Positions 29,285-64,000 of a stretch of 64,000 nt of DNA are shown here, piece by piece; the stretch's first letter is position 1, and each line of letters begins with the position of its first letter. This DNA comes from an uncultured Lachnospiraceae bacterium (GTDB lineage Bacteria; Bacillota; Clostridia; Lachnospirales; Lachnospiraceae). The notes beneath the pieces were generated by a model. The model made no database searches. It saw nothing but the letters and a program-made list of their open reading frames with translations, and was not told the origin of the DNA. The stretch lies in the NCBI GenBank assembly GCA_944381405.1, contig CALWLA010000007.1, forward strand, positions 8,014 to 72,013, read 5' to 3'. The position numbers and the translations under genes were made by a program.

Positions 29285-29357
29285 GGGCGGGCCTCCCGCT
29301 CCTATAAACCGGTTGACAAATCCGGGAAACTTTTTATAATACAGTTGTAAATCAAAT

Positions 29358-29520
29358 ATGGCTAGGGGCGCTTATTGCTGAGATGGAAGCGGAAGCTTTC
29401 TGTCCCTCATGACCTGACCAGGATAATGCCTGCGTAGGGAAGCACAGTTACGAAAAACGCCGGAGGAGGACTCCGGGGAGTTTCGTGCATTTTCAGCAGC
29501 CCCTCCTAAAGAACAGGAGG
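29358..29520 (+). promoter_or_regulatory. TPP (THI-box) riboswitch with SD-sequestering expression platform
   Basis: AGGGGCGC...CUGAGA...CCCUCAUGACCUGACCAGGAUAAUGCCUGCGUAGGGAAGC matches the conserved THI-box core. Downstream CCCCUCCU (29500-29507) can pair with the AGGAGG SD (29515-29520) of thiT. Confidence 0.9.
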
Positions 29521-52740: not shown

Positions 52741-53406
52741 ATGAAGGAAGATATCGCAAAAGGCTTGTTATCCATCAAGGCTGTATTTCTGAGACCGGAG
52801 GAGCCCTTTACCTGGGCCAGCGGAATCAAGAGCCCCATCTACTGCGACAACCGCCTGGTATTGACCGCACCGGAGGTGCGCACCATGGTGGAGACCCAGA
52901 TCGCGGAAACCATAAAGAAATATTATCCCGGCTGTGAGGTGCTGATGGGTACCTCCACCGCAGGAATCGCCCACGCAGCCATTGCAGCCCACATGATGGG
53001 ACTGCCCATGGGCTATGTGAGAGGCTCTGCAAAGGATCACGGCAGGACCAACCAGATCGAAGGAAGGCTGGAAAAGGGACAGAAGGTCGTAGTGGTGGAG
53101 GATCTGATCTCCACCGGCGGCTCCGTCATCGAGGTGGTGAACGTGCTGCGGGAGGCAGGCGCAGAGGTGCTGGGCATCGTCAGCATCTTCACCTATGGCA
53201 TGGCAAAGGGCCTGAACCGGCTGCGGGAGGCGCAGGTCAACAACATCAGCCTCTGCGATCTGGACACCCTGGTGGAGGTAGCCGTGGAAGAAGGTTATAT
53301 CAAGAAGGAAGACCGGATCAAGCTGCTACAGTTCAGGGACAACCCGTCAGATGAATCTTGGATGAAGGGGGAAGTGAAATGCAAAGAGATCAGATCAGGA
53401 ATCTGA
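52741..53406 (+). CDS. pyrE: orotate phosphoribosyltransferase
   Basis: ATG 52741 after [28 protein letters not shown] and PRPP loop [13 protein letters not shown]. The longer listed ORF (52477) overlaps pyrC. Confidence 0.92.
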
Positions 53407-54320
53407 TAAGCATTCTGGACTTATCAGTTGATGAGATCAACGGACTGATCGATGTGGCAAACGACATCGACCAGCATCCGGAGAGATACCAGGAGGCCTG
53501 CCGCCATAAGCAGCTGGCAACCCTGTTTTTTGAGCCCTCCACCAGGACCCGATTGAGCTTTGAATCCGCCATGCTGAGCCTGGGAGGCTCTGTGCTGGGC
53601 TTTTCCTCGGCTAATTCCAGCTCTGCGGCGAAAGGAGAGAGCGTTTCCGATACGGTGCGGACCGTGGGTAACTATGCGGACATCATCGCCATGCGCCACC
53701 CCAAAGAGGGAGCGCCCATGATCGCTTCCCAGCATACGGTGGTACCCATCATCAATGCGGGAGACGGCGGACATTTCCATCCCACCCAGACCCTTACGGA
53801 TCTTCTGACCATCAGCCGGAAAAAGGGCCGTCTGTCGGATATGACCATCGGCCTTTGCGGAGACCTGAAGTTCGGCCGCACGGTACACAGCCTCATCGAG
53901 GCGACCCTGCGGTATCCCAATATCCGCTATATTCTTATCAGCCCCGAGGAGCTTCGCGTTCCGGAATACATGATCGACGAGCTGAAGGAAGCGGGAGCTG
54001 ATTTTGAAGAGGTGACAGATCTGGAGGCGGCAATGCCGCAGCTGGATATTCTTTATATGACCCGTATCCAGAAGGAGCGTTTCTTTAACGAAGAGGACTA
54101 TCTCAGACTGAAGGACACCTACATCCTGACGCCGGACAAGCTGAAAAATGCCAAGAGCGACCTGAGCATCCTGCACCCCCTGCCGAGAGTCAACGAGATC
54201 TCCGTAAAAGTGGACGAGGATCCCAGGGCCTGCTATTTCTACCAGACCCTTTGCGGAAAGCAGATCCGCATGGCGCTGATCCTATTCCTTCTGGGCATTC
54301 ACCCGGAAGAACAGGCGTAA
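53379..54320 (+). CDS. pyrB: aspartate carbamoyltransferase catalytic subunit
   Basis: [13 protein letters not shown] and HPLPR motifs. ATG 53379 after GGGGGA (alternative ATG 53358). Overlaps the pyrE 3' end. Confidence 0.93.
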
Positions 54321-54365
54321 GCCTTTTGGACAAACCGGACAGTCAGAAATTTGGAGGAAAAAGCG

Positions 54366-54785
54366 ATGAATATAGACGGCGTAACCACGGGAATCGTGCT
54401 GGATCATATACAGGCCGGAAAATCCATGGAGATCTATGAATACCTGGGGCTCGACAAGCTCCAGAGCTGCGTGGCAGTCATCCAGAACGTGCGCAGCGCG
54501 AAGTATGGGAAGAAGGATATCATCAAGATCGACGAGCTCATCGATCTGAATCTGGATGTGCTGGGGTATTTCGATCCCAACATCACGGTGAATTATATCA
54601 AGGACGGAAAGCTTCTGGAAAAGAAGCATCTGGCTCTGCCGGATCGCCTGACGGATGTGCTGCACTGCAAAAACCCGCGGTGTATCACCAGCTGCGAGCA
54701 GGAGATCCCTCATGTATTTGAACTGGTGGATCGGGAGAAGAAGATCTACCGGTGCATCTACTGCGATACCCAGGTGCGGGTATGA
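54366..54785 (+). CDS. pyrI: aspartate carbamoyltransferase regulatory subunit
   Basis: ATG 54366 after GGAGG. GIVLDHI allosteric domain and zinc domain CKNPRCIT...CIYCD. Confidence 0.9.
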   Translation: MNIDGVTTGIVLDHIQAGKSMEIYEYLGLDKLQSCVAVIQNVRSAKYGKKDIIKIDELIDLNLDVLGYFDPNITVNYIKDGKLLEKKHLALPDRLTDVLHCKNPRCITSCEQEIPHVFELVDREKKIYRCIYCDTQVRV

Positions 54786-54858
54786 TCTGCAAAAGGCGAT
54801 TCGCAGCATAGAAAAAACAGCAGCAACTATATGGTATTACAGAATTGAAAATCGCGAA

Positions 54859-54890
54859 GGAGCATGGCCGAGGGGCTGTGCTCTTTTTTT
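54859..54890 (+). terminator. rho-independent terminator after pyrI
   Basis: GGAGCATGGCC-GAGG-GGCTGTGCTC stem (two G-U pairs) followed by TTTTTTT. Marks the GC-rich/AT-rich boundary. Confidence 0.75.
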
Positions 54891-55129
54891 GCGGCGATTT
54901 TGAAATTGAATGTCATTCCAAAAAGTTCCTGATTTTCGAAAGTTTTTGGATCACATTCCCAAAAGTGTTGAAAAAACGGGCGTTTTTGGATTCGGATTGT
55001 CCCATGCTTTTTATTTGTATGCCCGTGATATAGACGCAGGATGGCGGAAATGCGGGATGAAAGACAAGGGAGAGAGCATCTCCCTTTTTTTATTGCAAAA
55101 AATAGGAGCAGGGTGGGTGAAAACTAGCG

Positions 55130-55160
55130 AACTCCAAATAATGAACAATTATTTGGAGTT
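55130..55160. repeat. perfect 13-bp inverted repeat (hairpin or operator)
   Basis: AACTCCAAATAAT-GAACA-ATTATTTGGAGTT. The arms are exact reverse complements. Confidence 0.9.
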
Positions 55161-55499
55161 GGGGAGTGGGCTGACGGCAAAGGAAAAGGCGAGGCGTAAG
55201 GGTATGTATATGTACAGGGGGGGGATGGATATGCGGATGCAGGTGAGGAAGCGGATATGGGTGATTGAAGGGCGAGACTGTGGGAGATAAGTGAAAATGG
55301 ACATTCCAGAAGCTGCGAGGACAGTGATGGGATGTTTATTTTTAGATTGAAGGAAATGCAAAAAACGAAATGATTCTGTAAGACAATGGCTAGCCTGAAT
55401 TTTTAGTGGCATGAGAATGGGCTATGATGGCAGTTTTCTACATCAAAATTAGCTGAAAAAGGTGTTTTTGCGTAAAAGCGTTTGCATAGTGATTTCTTC

Positions 55500-55646
55500 A
55501 TTATAAAGCGAAAGTCGGAGTGATCAGGCGGTGGGGCTATCTATTATAAAGCGAAAGTGGGGAGTCTGGTCGGGCTTGAGAAACATGAAATTTTTCATTT
55601 TGGATAGATGGACGCAAACAGTGATGAGGTCATTATAAAGCGAAGG
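55500..55646 (+). repeat. three direct copies of ATTATAAAGCGAA(A/G)G
   Basis: Copies at 55500-55515, 55543-55558 and 55632-55646 (third has one mismatch). Each is followed within ~30 nt by a GGCGGT/GGTCGG element. Confidence 0.85.
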
Positions 55647-55803
55647 ATACGATACGTTGCTGGCGGTTTGGATTATGTCCACACCGCTGAAAGGCTGATA
55701 AATCAAGGACTTTTAAGAAATGTTCAGTACATATCGACAGGGCTGTCCAAATGATTTTAGTTGCTAGAGAAATGATATTTACCGATTGCTATGCGGAAAC
55801 CAT

Positions 55804-55894
55804 GTCTACCCAAATGGAATTATTGAAGGAAATAGAGGGCAATAAAGTATTCAACATTTGAGGTGTCTGCCCTAAATGGAATAGTTGATGAAAA
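55804..55894 (+). repeat. two ~29-nt imperfect direct repeats
   Basis: GTCTACCC-AAATGGAATTATTGAAGGAAA (55804-55832) and GTCTGCCCTAAATGGAATAGTTGATGAAAA (55865-55894), period 61 nt. Confidence 0.8.
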
Positions 55895-56020
55895 CAGACT
55901 ATGAAAGACTAGAAATGAACATTTCTGGTATTAATTTTATAAAATTTGGAAACTGGATTTAAGGGTACAGATGTACAGAGATTTGTTTGTTTCATTATAT
56001 AAATTGACTGAAAGAAAGGC

Positions 56021-56069
56021 TACTGTGGAAATCATGAAGAGGGGAATAAAGAAATGATTATCCACAGTA
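56021..56069. repeat. 15/16-nt inverted repeat just upstream of ugd
   Basis: TACTGTGGAAATCAT (56021-56035) and ATGATTATCCACAGTA (56054-56069). One-nt bulge, 18-nt loop, ends 55 nt before ATG 56125. Confidence 0.85.
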
Positions 56070-56124
56070 ATTTCGATCATAGAAAATATTCCGGATTTGC
56101 CGGATAGAAAGAGGAAAGGTTGTT

Positions 56125-57375
56125 ATGGATAAAAAGTATACGATTACTGTAGCTGGAACCGGATATGTGGGATTGTCGATTGCCACACTGCTGTCTCAGC
56201 ATCATAAGGTTTATGCTGTAGATATCGTTCCGGCAAAGGTTGATATGGTGAACCAGCGTAAATCACCGATTCAGGATGAATATATCGAAAAATATCTGGC
56301 AGAGAAGGACTTGGATTTGACCGCAACGCTTGACGCAGAGATGGCGTATAGAGCTGCGGATTTTGTTGTAATCGCGGCGCCTACAAACTACGACTCAAGT
56401 ACACAGCACTTTGACACGAGTGCAGTTGAAAACGTGATTGAACTGGTTATGAAATATAACCCGGAAGCAATCATGGTCATCAAATCGACCATTCCGGTTG
56501 GATATACGAAAAGTATCCGGGAGAAAACCGGAAGCAAGAATATCCTATTTAGCCCTGAGTTTTTAAGAGAGTCAAAAGCATTATATGACAATTTATATCC
56601 GTCAAGGATCATCGTGGGCACTGATATGGAGGACGAACGACTGGTCAATGCTGCACATACATTCGCTGAACTCTTGCAGGAGGGTGCTATTAAGGAGAAT
56701 ATCGACACGCTGTTTATGGGTTTCACCGAGGCTGAGGCTGTGAAACTGTTTGCTAATACCTATCTGGCACTTCGCGTGGCTTATTTCAACGAGCTTGATA
56801 CTTATGCGGAAATGAAGGGGCTTAATACCCAGCAGATCATTAAAGGTGTCTGCCTGGATCCGCGTATCGGAGATTTCTACAACAATCCGAGCTTTGGCTA
56901 TGGTGGATATTGTCTGCCAAAGGATACTAAACAGTTGCTGGCAAACTATCAGGATGTTCCAGAGAACTTGATTGAAGCAATCGTAGAGAGCAATAGGACG
57001 AGGAAGGATTTTATAGCAGATCGTGTACTGAAACTGGCCGGATATTATGACTATTACAATCGTGGCGACTATAGTGCTGACGAGGAAAAGAAATGCGTCA
57101 TTGGCGTTTATCGGCTGACCATGAAGAGCAATTCTGATAACTTCCGTCAGAGCAGTATCCAGGGTGTTATGAAGAGAATCAAGGCAAAGGGAGCTACAGT
57201 AATTATTTACGAACCAACTCTGGAAGATGGAAGTACTTTCTTCGGATCTGTAGTTGTAAATGATTTGGAAAAGTTCAAGGAGATGTCACAGGCCATTATC
57301 GCTAATCGGTATGACAAGTGCCTGAATGATGTGAAAGAGAAAGTTTATACAAGGGATATTTTCCAGAGGGATTGA
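56125..57375 (+). CDS. ugd: UDP-glucose 6-dehydrogenase
   Basis: Rossmann [10 protein letters not shown] and catalytic Cys motif [12 protein letters not shown]-rich codon usage. GAGGAAAGG RBS. Confidence 0.92.
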
Positions 57376-57385
57376 GGAGATAGCA

Positions 57386-59086
57386 ATGAATTACAAAGAT
57401 AGATATGAACAATGGCTAAATGATGATTTTTTTGATGAGACGACTCGAAAAGAGTTAGCCGCCTTAACAGACGATAAAGAGATTGAGGATTGTTTTTATC
57501 GCGATCTTGAGTTTGGTACAGGTGGTTTACGTGGCATCATGGGAGCCGGTACCAATCGAATGAATCAATACACAGTCGGGAAAGCAACGGCTGGACTTGG
57601 AAAGTATCTGCTTGATACTTATGGAGCAGAAGCCTGCAGAACTCGAGGCGTAGTTATTAGTTATGATACCCGGAATAACAGTAAATATTTTTCACAGACG
57701 ACAGCTAATATATTGAGTGGTATGGGAATCCGTGTTTATCTTCATTCCAACGCAAGACCAACACCACAGCTATCTTTTTCTGTGAAGTTCTTCCATGCAC
57801 TTGCCGGCGTAGTCATTACTGCCAGCCATAATCCAAAGAAATATAACGGTTACAAAGTATATGACGAATTTGGCTGCCAGCTTGTCCCCTGGCAGGCAAA
57901 GCAAGTGATCAGTTATGTGGATGCGATTACAGATTACCACAGCATTAACTATACAGGGAATGACAGCCTTATTTCTATGGTTGATGTGACGGATAACTTT
58001 GTCATGGCTGTCATGAAACAAAGTCGATATGAAGATCAACAGGCAAAGGAGGATTTAAAAGTTATATATACCCCATTACACGGGACAGGAAATATCCCTG
58101 TTCAGAAAGCGCTTCATTTAGGTGGTTTTACTCAAATTGAGCCAGTGGTAGAGCAAGTTGTCCCTGACGGGAACTTCCCCACTGTGGTCTCTCCTAACCC
58201 TGAAGACAAGAGAGCTTTGGAATTGGGAATTGTACAGGCAAAACGTATTGATGCGGACATCGTGTTGGGGACAGACCCGGATTGCGACCGTGTAGGAATT
58301 GCAGTTAGAAACTCAACTGGTGATTATCAATTAATGACCGGCAATCAGGTCGGCGCTTTGTTGATGAGATTCATCTTGACCCATACAGATTTGACTCAAT
58401 ATTCTCGTCCGGCAGTTGTGAAAACAGTCGTTACTTCAGAGCTTGGAGCGGATATTGCCAGAAAACATGGTATTACTGTGTTCTCCACTTTGACTGGTTT
58501 TAAATTCATCGGGGAAAAGATCACGCAGTTTGAGCGGGATAAAGCGGAAGGCAGTGCTGACCGGAATTTTGATTTCCTGTTCGGCTATGAAGAATCTTAT
58601 GGGTATTTAGCTGGAACACATGCCCGTGATAAAGATGCGGTTGTCAGCTCCCTGTTGATCTGTGAGATGGCTGCCGAAGCAAAGGCAAATGGAAAGACTC
58701 TTCTTGATGAAATGGATGAGATCTATGCGGAGTATGGTTACTACCGCGATGCTCTGGATAGTTTCACATTGAAGGGAAAGGACGGATTAGAAAAGATAAC
58801 GGCTATGATGACTGAATTACGTTCCTCTGATTCTCCATTTGAGGATACAGCTTCCGTTATTGATTACAGCAAACCAGTGGATGCAGAACCTGGATTCGGG
58901 AAACTACCTACGTCCAACGTTTTGAAATATATCTTGGAAGATGGCTCATGGATTGCTGTACGCCCGTCCGGCACGGAGCCCAAAATAAAAATTTATTACA
59001 GCATAAAGGCTGTTGATAAGGAAACTGCAGAGAAGAAATTAATAGATATACAAAATGTGATCCAGAGTAAGCTGGAACTTAACTAA
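57386..59086 (+). CDS. phosphoglucomutase/phosphomannomutase family phospho-sugar mutase
   Basis: Phosphoserine loop [15 protein letters not shown], metal loop GTDPDCDR and sugar loop GYEESYGY. 566 aa, PgcA-like size. Confidence 0.9.
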
Positions 59087-59100
59087 GGGGGCAAGGCGTT

Positions 59101-60420
59101 ATGAATATTATTTTACTTTCCGGGGGAAGCGGCAAGCGTCTGTGGCCTCTTTCCAATGAAGTAAGAAGCAAACAGTTTATCAAGTTGTTTAAAAATGAGA
59201 ATGGCGAATATGAATCCATGGTCCAGAGGGTGTACCGTCAGATCCATGCGGTAGATGATGCTGCCAATATTACGATTGCGACCAGTAAATCCCAAGCAAG
59301 TGCCATTAAAAATCAGTTGGGTGAGAAAGTATCGATCTGTGTGGAACCTTGCAGGCGGGATACATTTCCGGCGATTGTACTTGCTGTTTCTTATCTTCAT
59401 GATGAATTGGGAGTGTCTGAGGATGAGGCGGTAGTTGTCTGCCCGGTAGACCCTTATGTTGATCATACATACTACGAAGCAGTGGAAAAATTACAGGAGT
59501 TAGCAAAAGAAGAAAACGCTAACCTTACACTGATGGGAATTGAACCAACCTATCCTTCTGAGAAGTATGGCTATATCATTCCTGAGTCTGGCGATTCTGT
59601 GAGCAAAGTTAAGGAATTTAAAGAAAAACCAGATCAGGAGACAGCAAAGAAATATCTTACACAGAATGCCCTTTGGAATGCAGGTATTTTCGCATTTAAG
59701 ATCGGTTATTTGCTCAATAAAGCACATAGCATGATCGATTTTGAAGATTACCGTGAGTTATTTAATAAGTATGACACATTGGCTAAGATCAGCTTCGATT
59801 ACGCTGTCGTAGAAAAAGAGCCATCCATCCAGGTATTGCGTTACAAAGGAGACTGGAAAGATGTGGGGACCTGGAATATGATGGCCGAGGTCATGGCAGA
59901 TACAACAAAAGGAAAGGTGATCCTGGATGATGCCTGCGAGAATACCAATGTGGTAAATGAGCTCAATATTCCGATTCTCTGTATGGGATGCAAAGACCTG
60001 ATCGTTGCGGTCAGTGGTGACGGGATCCTGGTTTCTGATAAGGAACGCAGCGGCTATATGAAGCCTTATGTGGAAAAAATCGAAACAGAGGCCATGTATG
60101 CAGAAAAATCCTGGGGAACCTACACTGTTATTGATGTGCAGGTTGGTTCCATGACTGTAAAACTGTCTATGAAACCAGGCGAACATATGAGTTATCACAT
60201 GCACAATTACCGGGAGGAAGTATGGACGGTGGTATCCGGCAAAGGAAAAGCTATTGTTGATGGAATGGAACAGATTCTACGGACTGGCGATGTCATCACG
60301 ATTGCGGCAGGCTGCAAGCATACGGTAGAGGCAATCACCGGGTTGGACATGATTGAAGTTCAAATTGGTGAGGAAATTAGTGTTAGTGATAAAGTGAAGT
60401 TTTCGCTGGGCGAAAGATAG
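59101..60420 (+). CDS. manC: mannose-1-phosphate guanylyltransferase with C-terminal cupin
   Basis: LLSGGSGKRLWPLSNEVRSKQF nucleotidyltransferase motif. C-terminal cupin (GEHMSYHMHNYREEVWTVVSGKG). Confidence 0.88.
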   Translation: MNIILLSGGSGKRLWPLSNEVRSKQFIKLFKNENGEYESMVQRVYRQIHAVDDAANITIATSKSQASAIKNQLGEKVSICVEPCRRDTFPAIVLAVSYLHDELGVSEDEAVVVCPVDPYVDHTYYEAVEKLQELAKEENANLTLMGIEPTYPSEKYGYIIPESGDSVSKVKEFKEKPDQETAKKYLTQNALWNAGIFAFKIGYLLNKAHSMIDFEDYRELFNKYDTLAKISFDYAVVEKEPSIQVLRYKGDWKDVGTWNMMAEVMADTTKGKVILDDACENTNVVNELNIPILCMGCKDLIVAVSGDGILVSDKERSGYMKPYVEKIETEAMYAEKSWGTYTVIDVQVGSMTVKLSMKPGEHMSYHMHNYREEVWTVVSGKGKAIVDGMEQILRTGDVITIAAGCKHTVEAITGLDMIEVQIGEEISVSDKVKFSLGER

Positions 60421-60434
60421 TGGGTGCGGTAGAA

Positions 60435-61400
60435 ATGGAAATATTGAAACTGAAGCCTGCGGGAAAGGATTATCTCTGGGGTGGTACAAGACTCCGTGAT
60501 GAATATGGGAAGAAAATTGATCTGACCCCTTTAGCGGAAACATGGGAGTGTTCTGTTCATCCGGATGGTCCCAGTATTGTAACGAATGGAGAATTTAAAG
60601 GCTGGAAGTTAACAGATGTCTTAAAGCAGCATCCGGAATTTCTTGGCTTAAAGGTCAAAAATGGTGAATTACCTATCTTAGTGAAATTTATAGATGCGAA
60701 ACAGGATCTGTCTGTGCAGGTACATCCGGATGATGAGTATGCCAGAAAGAATGAACATCAAAATGGAAAAACCGAAATGTGGTATGTCATTGATGCCGAT
60801 GAAGGGGCAAATCTGATCTATGGCTTTCAGCACAAAGTTACAGACGATATTTTAAGAAACGCTGTCGAGACAGGAACCCTTGATAAACATCTGCAAAAAG
60901 TGTCTGTCCATAAGGGTGATATCTTCTATGTTCCAGCAGGGACAGTTCATGGTATAGGAGCTGGTATTCTGCTTGCGGAGATTCAGGAAAGCTCCAATGT
61001 AACATACCGTGTCTATGATTATGACAGGGTTGATAAAAATGGAAAAAAACGGGAACTTCATTTTGATAAGGCCGTTCATGTTATGAACATGGATATGGCT
61101 CCAGATGTAAAGCAGATGCCGAGGATAATAAAACATTATCCGGGATGTTCACGAGAACTGCTGTGTCGCTGCAAATACTTTGAAGTTGAAAGAATTCAAG
61201 TCACCAAAGCATTTTCATTTTCTGTTCTTGAAGAATCGTTCCAAGTCATTATGTGCCTGGAAGGAGAGGGACAGATAGAGACAATGGATGAGAACCTAAA
61301 ACCAGTCAGGTTTGTGAAGGGAAGGACATTGCTTCTTCCAGCTGGACTTGGAAGGTGTCTGGTTGTTGGGGATGCTACGATATTGAAGATAAGGTGTTAA
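60435..61400 (+). CDS. manA: mannose-6-phosphate isomerase, class I
   Basis: [46 protein letters not shown] 60420 is an alternative start overlapping the manC stop. Confidence 0.88.
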
Positions 61401-61426
61401 TTAAAATTTTAGGAGGATTAACGATT

Positions 61427-62458
61427 ATGAAAAAGGCATTAATTACTGGAATTACTGGTCAGGATGGTTCCTACTTGGCGGAATTTCTTCTCGAGAAGGG
61501 CTATGAGGTACATGGAATCATACGTCGTGCATCTGTTTCTACAACCGCACGTATAGACCACATTCTAGACAAATTAAATATCCATGAAGGAGACCTGTCA
61601 GATTCTTCCAGCATCATACGCATTGTTCTTCAGGTTAAGCCAGATGAAATTTATAATCTTGCAGCTCAGTCTCATGTACAGGTGTCCTTTGATGCAGCTG
61701 AGTATACAGGAGATGTAGATGCTCTTGGTGTACTTCGAATCCTTGAGGCTGTGCATACCGCTGGCTTGGATAAAACCTGCCGCGTATATCAGGCATCTAC
61801 TTCTGAACTGTACGGAAAGGTTGAGGAAGTTCCGCAGAACGAGAATACACCGTTCCATCCATATTCACCTTACGCAGTAGCAAAGCAGTATGGTTATTGG
61901 ATGATTAAAGAATATAGAGAAGCATATGGCATTTTCGCATGCAACGGTATCCTTTTTAATCATGAATCAGAACGTCGTGGCGAGAATTTTGTAACGCGTA
62001 AGATTACTTTGGCAGCCGGACGTATCGCTTGTGGTCTTCAGGATCATCTTGAGCTTGGTAATCTGGATTCTCTGCGTGACTGGGGATACGCCAAGGATTA
62101 TGTGGAGTGTATGTGGCTGATCTTACAGCAGGATGAGCCAGATGATTATGTAATTGCTACTGGTGTACAGCACACGGTTCGGGAGTTTACAACGCTTGCT
62201 TTTGCTAATAATGGTATCGAGCTCGAGTGGAGAGGTGAAGGTATGGATGAAAAGGGATATGACAAACAGACTGGCAAGATGCTGGTTTGTGTAAATCCCA
62301 AGTGGTATCGTCCCACGGATGTTGTAAATCTTTGGGGAGATCCAACTAAGGCAAGAACTAAGTTGGGCTGGAATCCTCAGAAAACAAGTTATGAGGAGCT
62401 TTGCAGAATCATGGCAGAGCATGACTTACAATTAGCTAAAAAGGAAGCAGGTGTGTAA
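61427..62458 (+). CDS. gmd: GDP-mannose 4,6-dehydratase
   Basis: ATG 61427 after [49 protein letters not shown] and [10 protein letters not shown]. Confidence 0.95.
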
Positions 62459-63373
62459 ATGAAGGCTTTAATCACTGGAAGCAATGGCTTTATTGGCTCA
62501 CATCTTAGTACAGAGTTTGAGAAAAATGGATATGAAGTTATTAAGAGTGATCTTACTGAAGGTGGCGGAAATATTGCCATGGATATAATGAATCCAGCGG
62601 TGATTCAAAGTGTTCTTGAGAAATATAAACCAGATGTTATCATCAACATGGCCGGGCAGGCAAATGTAGGACTCTCGTGGAAGAAGCCACAGCTTACTGT
62701 TCAGCTTAACACGGTTGGATTGATTAATATCTTGGAATCTGTAAAAGCGGTCAACTCTGAGATACGTGTTATTGCTATTGGTTCTTCTGACGAATATGGG
62801 AGTTTAAAAGAAAGCGGTTCCAATGTTACTGAAGATATTCCTGTGAAACCGGTCACACCTTATGCTATTTCTAAACAGGCACAGGAGTTGTTTGCACAGC
62901 TGTACGTCCAATCGTATGGCATGGATATCTGCATGATTCGGCTATTCAATCTTGGTGGGGCAGGTCAATCAAAAGGATATATGATTTCTGATTTTTCTTC
63001 CGGTATTGCTGAAGTTGAGCTTGGAAAAAAAGATGTGATGTCTGTCGGCAACCTTGAGAGTGCCAGAGACTATACACATGTGAAGGATGCCTGTAGAGCT
63101 GTACGGCTTATTGTGGAAAAAGGACATGTTGGAGAGGTATACAATATCTGTTCTGGCACAACTCACACTGTACAGGAAGTCTTAGATAAGTTGATTGCAA
63201 TGGCAAAGACAGAGATTAAGGTTGTACAGGATCCAGCGAGGATGCGCCCGAGTGACACTCCGGTCGTTTGCGGTAATCATGATAAGCTGACTGCACATAC
63301 AGGATGGCAACCGAAATATGGTATTGATGAGATATTGAAAGATGCCCTCACTTATTGGAGAGAGCAGAATTGA
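62459..63373 (+). CDS. rmd: GDP-4-dehydro-6-deoxy-D-mannose reductase-like SDR (Rmd-like)
   Basis: Starts 1 nt after the gmd stop. ALITGSNGFIGSHL, YAISK, VYNICSG and VQDPARMRPSD resemble recalled Rmd sequences rather than Fcl. Exact product (D-rhamnose vs 6-deoxy-D-talose) cannot be decided by eye. Confidence 0.7.
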   Translation: MKALITGSNGFIGSHLSTEFEKNGYEVIKSDLTEGGGNIAMDIMNPAVIQSVLEKYKPDVIINMAGQANVGLSWKKPQLTVQLNTVGLINILESVKAVNSEIRVIAIGSSDEYGSLKESGSNVTEDIPVKPVTPYAISKQAQELFAQLYVQSYGMDICMIRLFNLGGAGQSKGYMISDFSSGIAEVELGKKDVMSVGNLESARDYTHVKDACRAVRLIVEKGHVGEVYNICSGTTHTVQEVLDKLIAMAKTEIKVVQDPARMRPSDTPVVCGNHDKLTAHTGWQPKYGIDEILKDALTYWREQN

Positions 63374-63390
63374 TTTATTAGGAGTGACTA

Positions 63391-64000
63391 TATGAGAATG
63401 AAATTCCTTAATACCCACATTGATAATCTTACAATGAGTGAAGCAATTCAAGAAATAGATAAATTAATCCAAGATGGAAAGCATTCGTATGTAGTTACTC
63501 CTAATCTGGATCATATTGTACTTATAGAAAATGATGAGTTATTTAAAGAAATTTATGACAATGCGGATTTGGTTTTAGCTGATGGGAAACCGTTGTTGTG
63601 GATTGCGAAAAGGCAAGGAACTCCAATTAAAGAAAAAGTATCTGGTTCGGATCTTTTCCCGGAGATGTGTAAGTTGGCAGCAAAGAACGGGTACAAGATT
63701 TATATCCTTGGAGCAGCTGAGGGAGTAGCAGATAAGGCTGCAGAGAACCTTATAGTAAAGTTTAATGGACTTAAAATTGTAGGTACATATTCGCCACCTA
63801 TAGGATTTGAAACGGACAAAACTGAGGTTCAAAAAATTGTTAATAAGATTAACGAATCCAAAGCTGATATTTTGGCCGTTGCATTAGGCTCACCGAAGGG
63901 CGAAAAGTTCATATATAGGATTAGAGAGAAGATATGTGTGGTTTTGTCAATTTCAATCGGGGCCACGATAGATTTTGAGGCAGGGAATTTGAAGCGTGCT
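63391..64000 (+). CDS. WecG/TagA/CpsF family glycosyltransferase (3' end outside the window)
   Basis: Not in the ORF track because no stop lies within the window. My translation from ATG 63391 (after AGGAG) gives MRMKFLNTHIDNLTMSEA...VVTPNLDHIV...ADLVLADGKPLLW...VSGSDLF...YILGAAEG...ILAVALGSPKGEKF, the WecG/TagA pattern. Confidence 0.85.

Follow-up and report, generated by a model that had tools for sequence, protein, structure and literature searches.

Which deoxysugar is supplied by a block of nucleotide-sugar genes at positions 56125-64000 of a 64,000-nucleotide stretch of DNA from an uncultured Lachnospiraceae bacterium (GCA_944381405.1, contig CALWLA010000007.1, positions 8,014 to 72,013; hereafter the window), and into what kind of glycan would it go? 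The question turns on a 304-amino acid short-chain dehydrogenase/reductase (SDR) encoded directly after gmd, the gene for GDP-mannose 4,6-dehydratase. A preliminary description of this DNA had read the SDR as Rmd, a GDP-4-keto-6-deoxy-D-mannose 4-reductase, and had predicted an acidic, D-rhamnose-containing wall or capsule polymer. Our answer, to which we assign a probability of about 0.7, is that the block supplies nucleotide sugars at one end of a larger surface-glycan locus, Wzy-dependent in type and probably horizontally acquired, and that it makes GDP-D-rhamnose alongside UDP-glucuronate.

The SDR carries the extended SDR motif set, with GSNGFIG at residues 7-13, GSSDEYG at 108-114 and YAISK at 135-139, and matches PF16363 from end to end (223 bits). 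Its best sequence match in the PDB is the Rmd of Aneurinibacillus thermoaerophilus (2PK3; E 2.7e-64, 220 bits), followed by the Rmd of Pseudomonas aeruginosa (6X3B; E 4e-43, 151 bits); the highest score for any Gmd, 112 bits, falls behind both. Full-length identities are 37% to the A. thermoaerophilus Rmd, 31% to the P. aeruginosa Rmd, 24-28% to Gmds and 20% to Escherichia coli Fcl. A neighbour-joining tree of the SDR, nine genomic homologues, the two Rmds, Gmds and E. coli Fcl (the A. actinomycetemcomitans enzyme Tld, Q9JRN7, was not in it) placed the SDR and its homologues as sister to the A. thermoaerophilus Rmd, with the P. aeruginosa Rmd joining next, then the Gmd clade, and Fcl as the outgroup. 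When an AlphaFold (AF2) model of the SDR was submitted to Foldseek, 2PK3 was again the top match (TM-score 0.84) and 6X3B came next. The strings on which the preliminary description had relied, VYNICSG (residues 227-233), VQDPARMRPSD (256-266) and YAISK, all occur in the SDR, and its statement that P. aeruginosa Rmd contains VYNVCSG and VQDPARMR was confirmed by the 6X3B alignment (VYNVCSG, IVQDPARMR). Its proposed comparison of Rmd with Fcl also came out as it had expected. The placement of the SDR with Rmd-type 4-reductases, and not with Fcl, is therefore supported by these comparisons. Both characterised Rmds produce D-rhamnose, and because sequence, tree and fold all put them closest to the SDR among characterised enzymes, we prefer GDP-D-rhamnose as the predicted product of the SDR, at the probability given above.

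The genomic context points the same enzyme toward the product of Gmd. We scanned species-representative genomes for homologues of the SDR and found nine close ones, at 63-79% identity, and no copy above 79%, so that the representative of the species itself is either missing from the set or without the island. The one taxonomic hint came from a pyr-region protein, which clusters at 90% identity or more with a protein of Candidatus Avilachnospira. They come from rumen Clostridiales and Oscillospiraceae metagenome-assembled genomes (MAGs), Schaedlerella arabinosiphila, two Ruminococcus flavefaciens strains, Lachnospiraceae AC2029, Succinivibrio dextrinosolvens and an Aeromonadales MAG. In the window, the start codon of the SDR gene stands immediately 3' of the gmd stop codon, and in eight of the nine other genomes, which include both Clostridia and Gammaproteobacteria, only a few bases at most separate the start of the homologue from the end of gmd. 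This conserved adjacency gives strong contextual support to the view that the product of Gmd is the substrate of the SDR. In the ninth genome, R. flavefaciens YAD2003 (locus L015, 10018-10410), the gmd sequence detected before the Rmd homologue starts at about nucleotide 639 of the gene and covers its 3' part only, which may reflect a truncated gene or a rearrangement. The gmd-rmd pair usually has manC, manA or a phosphohexomutase gene upstream of it, and a glycosyltransferase gene of family GT26 adjoins it in five of ten loci, the window cluster being counted through the metagenome contig L001.

The Gmds that precede the SDR homologues are 82-96% identical in protein sequence to that of the window, and Sphaerochaeta halotolerans was found among the Gmds that cluster with it at 90% identity or more. 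Recent horizontal transfer was considered as the cause of the 92-96% Gmd identities seen across phyla and rejected, since the pairs (L009-L017) are only 69-77% identical to that of the window at the nucleotide level. High protein identity at such low DNA identity argues for constraint and an older spread, and indicates that this Gmd lineage is under unusually strong constraint.

Of the other reactions that could give the SDR a different product, reduction with 3,5-epimerisation by a GDP-L-fucose synthase (Fcl/WcaG-type), or a ColC-like activity, would put L-fucose or colitose into the glycan. Fucose operons also have an SDR after gmd, as in the gmd-fcl pair of E. coli, so the position of the gene is compatible with this activity; the protein is not. 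The SDR scores 48 bits against the Fcl equivalog model NF047922, whose cut-off is 500, its identity to E. coli Fcl is the lowest of the set, Fcl forms the outgroup of the tree, and Fcl structures are absent from the top sequence and fold matches. We regard this alternative as effectively refuted already, with a negligible residual probability. Nor do we think it at all probable that the SDR acts on another nucleotide sugar, as a DmhB-like GDP-6-deoxy-4-keto-heptose reductase, a second dehydratase or an epimerase, leaving the GDP-mannose genes to serve mannose incorporation only. A GDP-heptose 4,6-dehydratase (7US5) does appear among the sequence and fold matches, and PGAP names the homologues of the SDR "GDP-mannose 4,6-dehydratase". 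However, the neighbouring gene already encodes a canonical Gmd well above its equivalog cut-off, no heptose-pathway genes were seen in the cluster, Gmd exceeds the SDR in length by about 40 residues, and the scores of the SDR against the Rmds exceed every dehydratase score.

The more serious competitor, although we still consider it unlikely, is a Tld/GTS-type reductase that would deliver hydride to the opposite face of C4 and yield GDP-6-deoxy-D-talose. Tld makes this C4 epimer from the same substrate, and the literature treats it as an Rmd homologue. Published tables of annotations apply the name "GDP-6-deoxy-D-talose 4-dehydrogenase" both to Psyr_0915 of P. syringae and to the Yersinia enterocolitica O:10 Rmd, yet both are tied to D-rhamnose antigens. 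That the Tld name is given to the Rmds of D-rhamnose producers means that Tld is evidently a relative of Rmd; the two activities are not cleanly separable by similarity, and family membership alone does not fix the configuration at C4. Expressed gene families under the Tld name have also been reported from rumen metatranscriptomes. On the other side, whether judged by sequence, tree or fold, the nearest characterised enzyme is the A. thermoaerophilus Rmd, with that of P. aeruginosa next, and no direct comparison favours Tld. When we scanned metagenome contigs with the published tld primers, the 3' primer had no matches and the 5' primer matched seven unrelated genes (GalE-like, 3-beta-HSD-like and peptidase genes).

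Several observations weigh against GDP-D-rhamnose synthesis by a Wzy-type locus. The characterised Rmds are only 31-37% identical to the SDR, and Tld evidently belongs to the same homologous SDR group as Rmd. The AF2 model has a predicted local distance difference test (pLDDT) score of 80, with low confidence at residues 112-137, beside the active site. Two of the supply enzymes reach no NCBIfam equivalog cut-off: the phosphohexomutase reaches none at all, and ManC scores 212 bits against TIGR01479, under the cut-off of 373. Finally, neither the window nor the 10 kb downstream of it shows a priming phosphoglycosyl transferase, a flippase, a chain-length regulator or an ABC transporter.

The remaining enzymes would complete a route from fructose-6-phosphate to the substrate of the SDR, and the set matches the textbook GDP-D-rhamnose pathway. 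ManA, which exceeds the TIGR00218 cut-off (164 bits against 116), would convert fructose-6-phosphate to mannose-6-phosphate, and the 566-amino acid phosphohexomutase would convert this to mannose-1-phosphate. The mutase has TASHNP, DPDCDR, EESYG and RPSGTEP and all four PGM_PMM domains, and its relatives of solved structure are weak matches only. Mutases 41-42% identical to it precede manC in three other loci (L009, L012 and L015), and from this conserved position we infer that it is a phosphomannomutase. ManC, whose best PDB match is the GDP-mannose pyrophosphorylase of Thermotoga maritima (2X5S, E 1e-41) and which has GGSGKRLWPLS at residues 8-18, would then form GDP-mannose. Its C-terminal cupin keeps, at residues 366-375 (window 60196-60225), an H-x-H...R-E-x-W motif resembling that of type II phosphomannose isomerases; the enzyme may have two activities, one of them overlapping in part with that of the class I ManA encoded next to it. 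Gmd reaches its equivalog model TIGR01472 (513 bits, cut-off 415), is 61% identical to the E. coli enzyme, has STSELYG and YAVAK, and would dehydrate GDP-mannose to GDP-4-keto-6-deoxy-D-mannose. The translationally abutting SDR would use NAD(P)H to reduce C4 of this intermediate, GDP-D-rhamnose being the most probable product (Rmd, EC 1.1.1.281). For Rmd itself, NCBIfam has no model.

In parallel, Ugd would oxidise UDP-glucose to UDP-glucuronate. The ugd product scores 306 bits against TIGR03026 (cut-off 190) and matches PRK15057, the E. coli Ugd model, from end to end at 562 bits, under its equivalog cut-off of 757. Its best PDB matches are Klebsiella Ugd (3PHL, 522 bits) and Streptococcus pyogenes HasB (1DLI, 471 bits). 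With its catalytic cysteine motif GGYCLPKD at residues 260-267, it is a three-domain nucleoside diphosphate (NDP)-sugar dehydrogenase closest to characterised Ugd. GDP-mannose 6-dehydrogenase was tried as its identity and rejected, AlgD (1MFZ) scoring 88 bits as against 522 for Ugd.

All seven genes lie on the + strand in the order ugd-mutase-manC-manA-gmd-rmd-GT26, separated by 10, 14, -1, 26, 0 and 18 nucleotides, and a search of the + strand inside the block gave no convincing terminator candidate (Table 1). The catalytic motifs expected of the enzymes are all intact. Thus, the claim that a complete enzyme set from fructose-6-phosphate to a GDP-6-deoxyhexose lies with ugd in one operon-like block was borne out, with two corrections. 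The interval given for it, 57386-63373, holds the genes named except ugd, which lies just outside, 10 nucleotides upstream of the mutase gene; and the genes had been listed in pathway order, not gene order.

Table 1. Features of the window from pyrB to the window end. Coordinates are window positions.
Feature	Coordinates	Strand	Evidence or remark
pyrB	53358-54320		Upstream of the island
pyrI	54351-54785		Last pyr gene before the island
Non-coding stretch between pyrI and ugd, ~1.3 kb	54786-56124	+	G+C break from 57% to ~42%; conserved cluster leader from 55385
ugd, UDP-glucose 6-dehydrogenase, 416 amino acids, makes UDP-glucuronate (predicted)	56125-57375	+	TIGR03026; PDB matches
Alpha-D-phosphohexomutase, 566 amino acids; putative phosphomannomutase, may also act as phosphoglucomutase	57386-59086	+	PGM_PMM domains I-IV (Pfam)
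manC, mannose-1-phosphate guanylyltransferase with C-terminal cupin (type II phosphomannose isomerase-like), 439 amino acids	59101-60420	+	PF00483 and PF01050
manA, class I mannose-6-phosphate isomerase, 326 amino acids from GTG; ATG at 60435	60420-61400	+	TIGR00218; PF20511 and PF21621
gmd, GDP-mannose 4,6-dehydratase, 343 amino acids	61427-62458	+	TIGR01472
Rmd-type GDP-4-keto-6-deoxy-D-mannose 4-reductase (SDR), 304 amino acids; predicted product GDP-D-rhamnose	62459-63373	+	PDB; Foldseek; neighbour-joining tree
GT26 (WecG/TagA/CpsF family) glycosyltransferase, 248 codons, of which the first 203 lie inside the window	63392-64000	+	TIGR00696, on the full-length copy in contig L002

The cluster can be followed beyond the window on a metagenome contig (L002) that is 100% identical to positions 56297-64000 and continues at 34-36% G+C. 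There, the full-length copy of the GT26 gene product scores 143 bits against TIGR00696 (cut-off 69), and it is followed by three consecutive GT4 genes, a gene for a protein with a Wzy_C domain, a GT2 gene and a further GT4-type transferase gene. Together with the four GT4-type transferases and the one GT2 transferase encoded downstream, the GT26 enzyme would assemble a repeat unit on a lipid carrier, which the Wzy_C protein would polymerise or transfer. With no priming transferase, flippase or chain-length regulator in view, only the Wzy_C match speaks to the type of pathway and the fate of the glycan. That match is compatible with a capsule or exopolysaccharide of Wzy type, with a wall polymer and with glycosylation of protein such as an S-layer. 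The wall or capsule polymer of the preliminary description is therefore one possible fate, but was overstated, since the Wzy_C protein fits exopolysaccharide or protein glycosylation equally well. The composition of the glycan, like its destination and the configuration at C4, is a prediction.

The window cluster can be compared with several characterised systems. The Rmd of A. thermoaerophilus L420-91T, from its S-layer glycan pathway, is likewise a Firmicute enzyme paired with gmd, and it has the GxxGxxG, S..Y-x3-K, FNxxGxGQ and RD motifs in common with the SDR, for which it is the top match in both sequence and fold. Its identity is only 37%, however, and the window locus differs in having a Wzy_C protein and a UDP-glucuronate supply and no ABC transporter within 10 kb. 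The P. aeruginosa Rmd, encoded in the common polysaccharide antigen locus, shares VYN(I/V)CSG and VQDPARMR at 31% identity. That locus resembles the window cluster in the adjacency of gmd and rmd and in having several GT4 genes (those of the rhamnosyltransferases WbpX/Y/Z there), a likeness by family and not by direct comparison. The common polysaccharide antigen is an ABC-transporter-dependent homopolymer. The A. actinomycetemcomitans Tld/GTS acts on the same substrate with the same cofactor and falls in the same homologous SDR group, but sets the opposite C4 configuration. In overall organisation, the locus also resembles the E. coli colanic acid cluster (cpsG-cpsB-gmd-fcl with glycosyltransferases, Wzy and Wzx), where GDP-mannose supply, gmd and a reductase also stand among glycosyltransferases and a polymerase. 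The colanic acid polymer contains glucuronate, and the window locus supplies UDP-glucuronate. The reductase of the E. coli cluster is, however, Fcl, 20% identical to the SDR, and ugd and manA lie outside it.

The preliminary description had called the predicted polymer unusual for a clostridial organism, a view that the survey of homologues shows to be overstated. The cassette occurs at 63-79% identity in Ruminococcus, Schaedlerella, Lachnospiraceae and Oscillospiraceae. Metagenome homologues of the SDR were clustered at 90% identity, and beyond the query's own cluster all 119 other clusters among the matches listed are at least 75% identical to it (range 75-88%); 4231 proteins among the candidates scored passed E 1e-20. 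By this measure of homology, the locus is not unusual for Clostridia, and the predicted cassette is common in gut and rumen bacteria. A preprint survey that used very strict BLAST criteria concluded that the GDP-D-rhamnose pathway is mostly found in Pseudomonas, with no Rmd in metagenomes. The abundance of putative Rmd homologues here contradicts that conclusion, which gives the finding some annotation value, even though the single locus is itself an ordinary, well-explained polysaccharide gene cluster. Naming within the Rmd family is inconsistent, PGAP using the dehydratase name and other annotations the 6-deoxy-D-talose one, and a rumen metatranscriptome study takes the latter label at face value.

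We tentatively suggest, at somewhat less than even odds, that gmd-rmd, often with GT26, is a module shared across phyla among gut and rumen anaerobes (Lachnospiraceae, Ruminococcus, Oscillospiraceae, Succinivibrio and Sphaerochaeta). In that case glycans with D-rhamnose or 6-deoxy-D-talose would be common in these organisms, and the GT26 enzyme could be a previously unrecognised GDP-6-deoxyhexose transferase. The literature was searched for glycans of Butyrivibrio, Ruminococcus or Lachnospiraceae that contain D-rhamnose or 6-deoxytalose, and nothing usable came up. If GDP-D-rhamnose is indeed made, a sugar deemed rare and largely pseudomonad would probably be found routinely on the surface of Firmicutes of the gut and rumen, with consequences for host immune recognition, for phage and bacteriocin receptors and for the annotation of metagenomes.

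The base composition of the window changes sharply at the start of the cluster. G+C is 54-61% as far as the pyr genes extend, to about 54.8 kb, and 41-45% from there through the cluster, so that the steps run from about 57% for the genome to about 42% for the cluster and 34-36% for its continuation. The boundary lies at 54786-55385, where G+C drops from about 52% to about 40-46% directly after pyrI. At 55066-55086 a hairpin and a T-run resemble a terminator, and homology to contig L001 begins only at 55385. The cluster is thus probably a horizontally acquired, low-GC glycan island of at least 17 kb beside the pyr operon. L001 carries the same cluster, with ugd 96%, the leader 76% and the mutase gene onward 99-100% identical to the window; upstream it has a phosphoglycosyl-transferase gene in DNA of 51-55% G+C where the window has pyr genes. 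The same cluster thus stands in differing surroundings, as expected of a mosaic glycan island and typical of surface-polysaccharide loci.

Within the leader, the 13-mer ATTATAAAGCGAA occurs three times on the + strand (at 55500, 55543 and 55632, spanning 55500-55644), as against 0.05 occurrences expected, and the boxes are largely kept in the L001 leader. An Rfam search of the 1.3-kb leader gave no match above noise. The boxes may be regulator sites or part of a leader RNA of the glycan operon.

Farther downstream, at 14600-17077 of L002 and about 8-10 kb past the window end, an NDP-hexose 2,3-dehydratase gene and a GFO/IDH oxidoreductase gene follow the transferases. In sister contigs (L004-L007), a 51-amino acid nucleotidyltransferase fragment (L004, 11764-11919) precedes these two genes. 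The arrangement has the look of another deoxysugar module, attached where a recombination event left a scar. Elsewhere in the window and unrelated to the cluster, a thiamine pyrophosphate (TPP) riboswitch (RF00059) was detected at 29354-29457 on the + strand, at 62.7 bits and above the gathering score.

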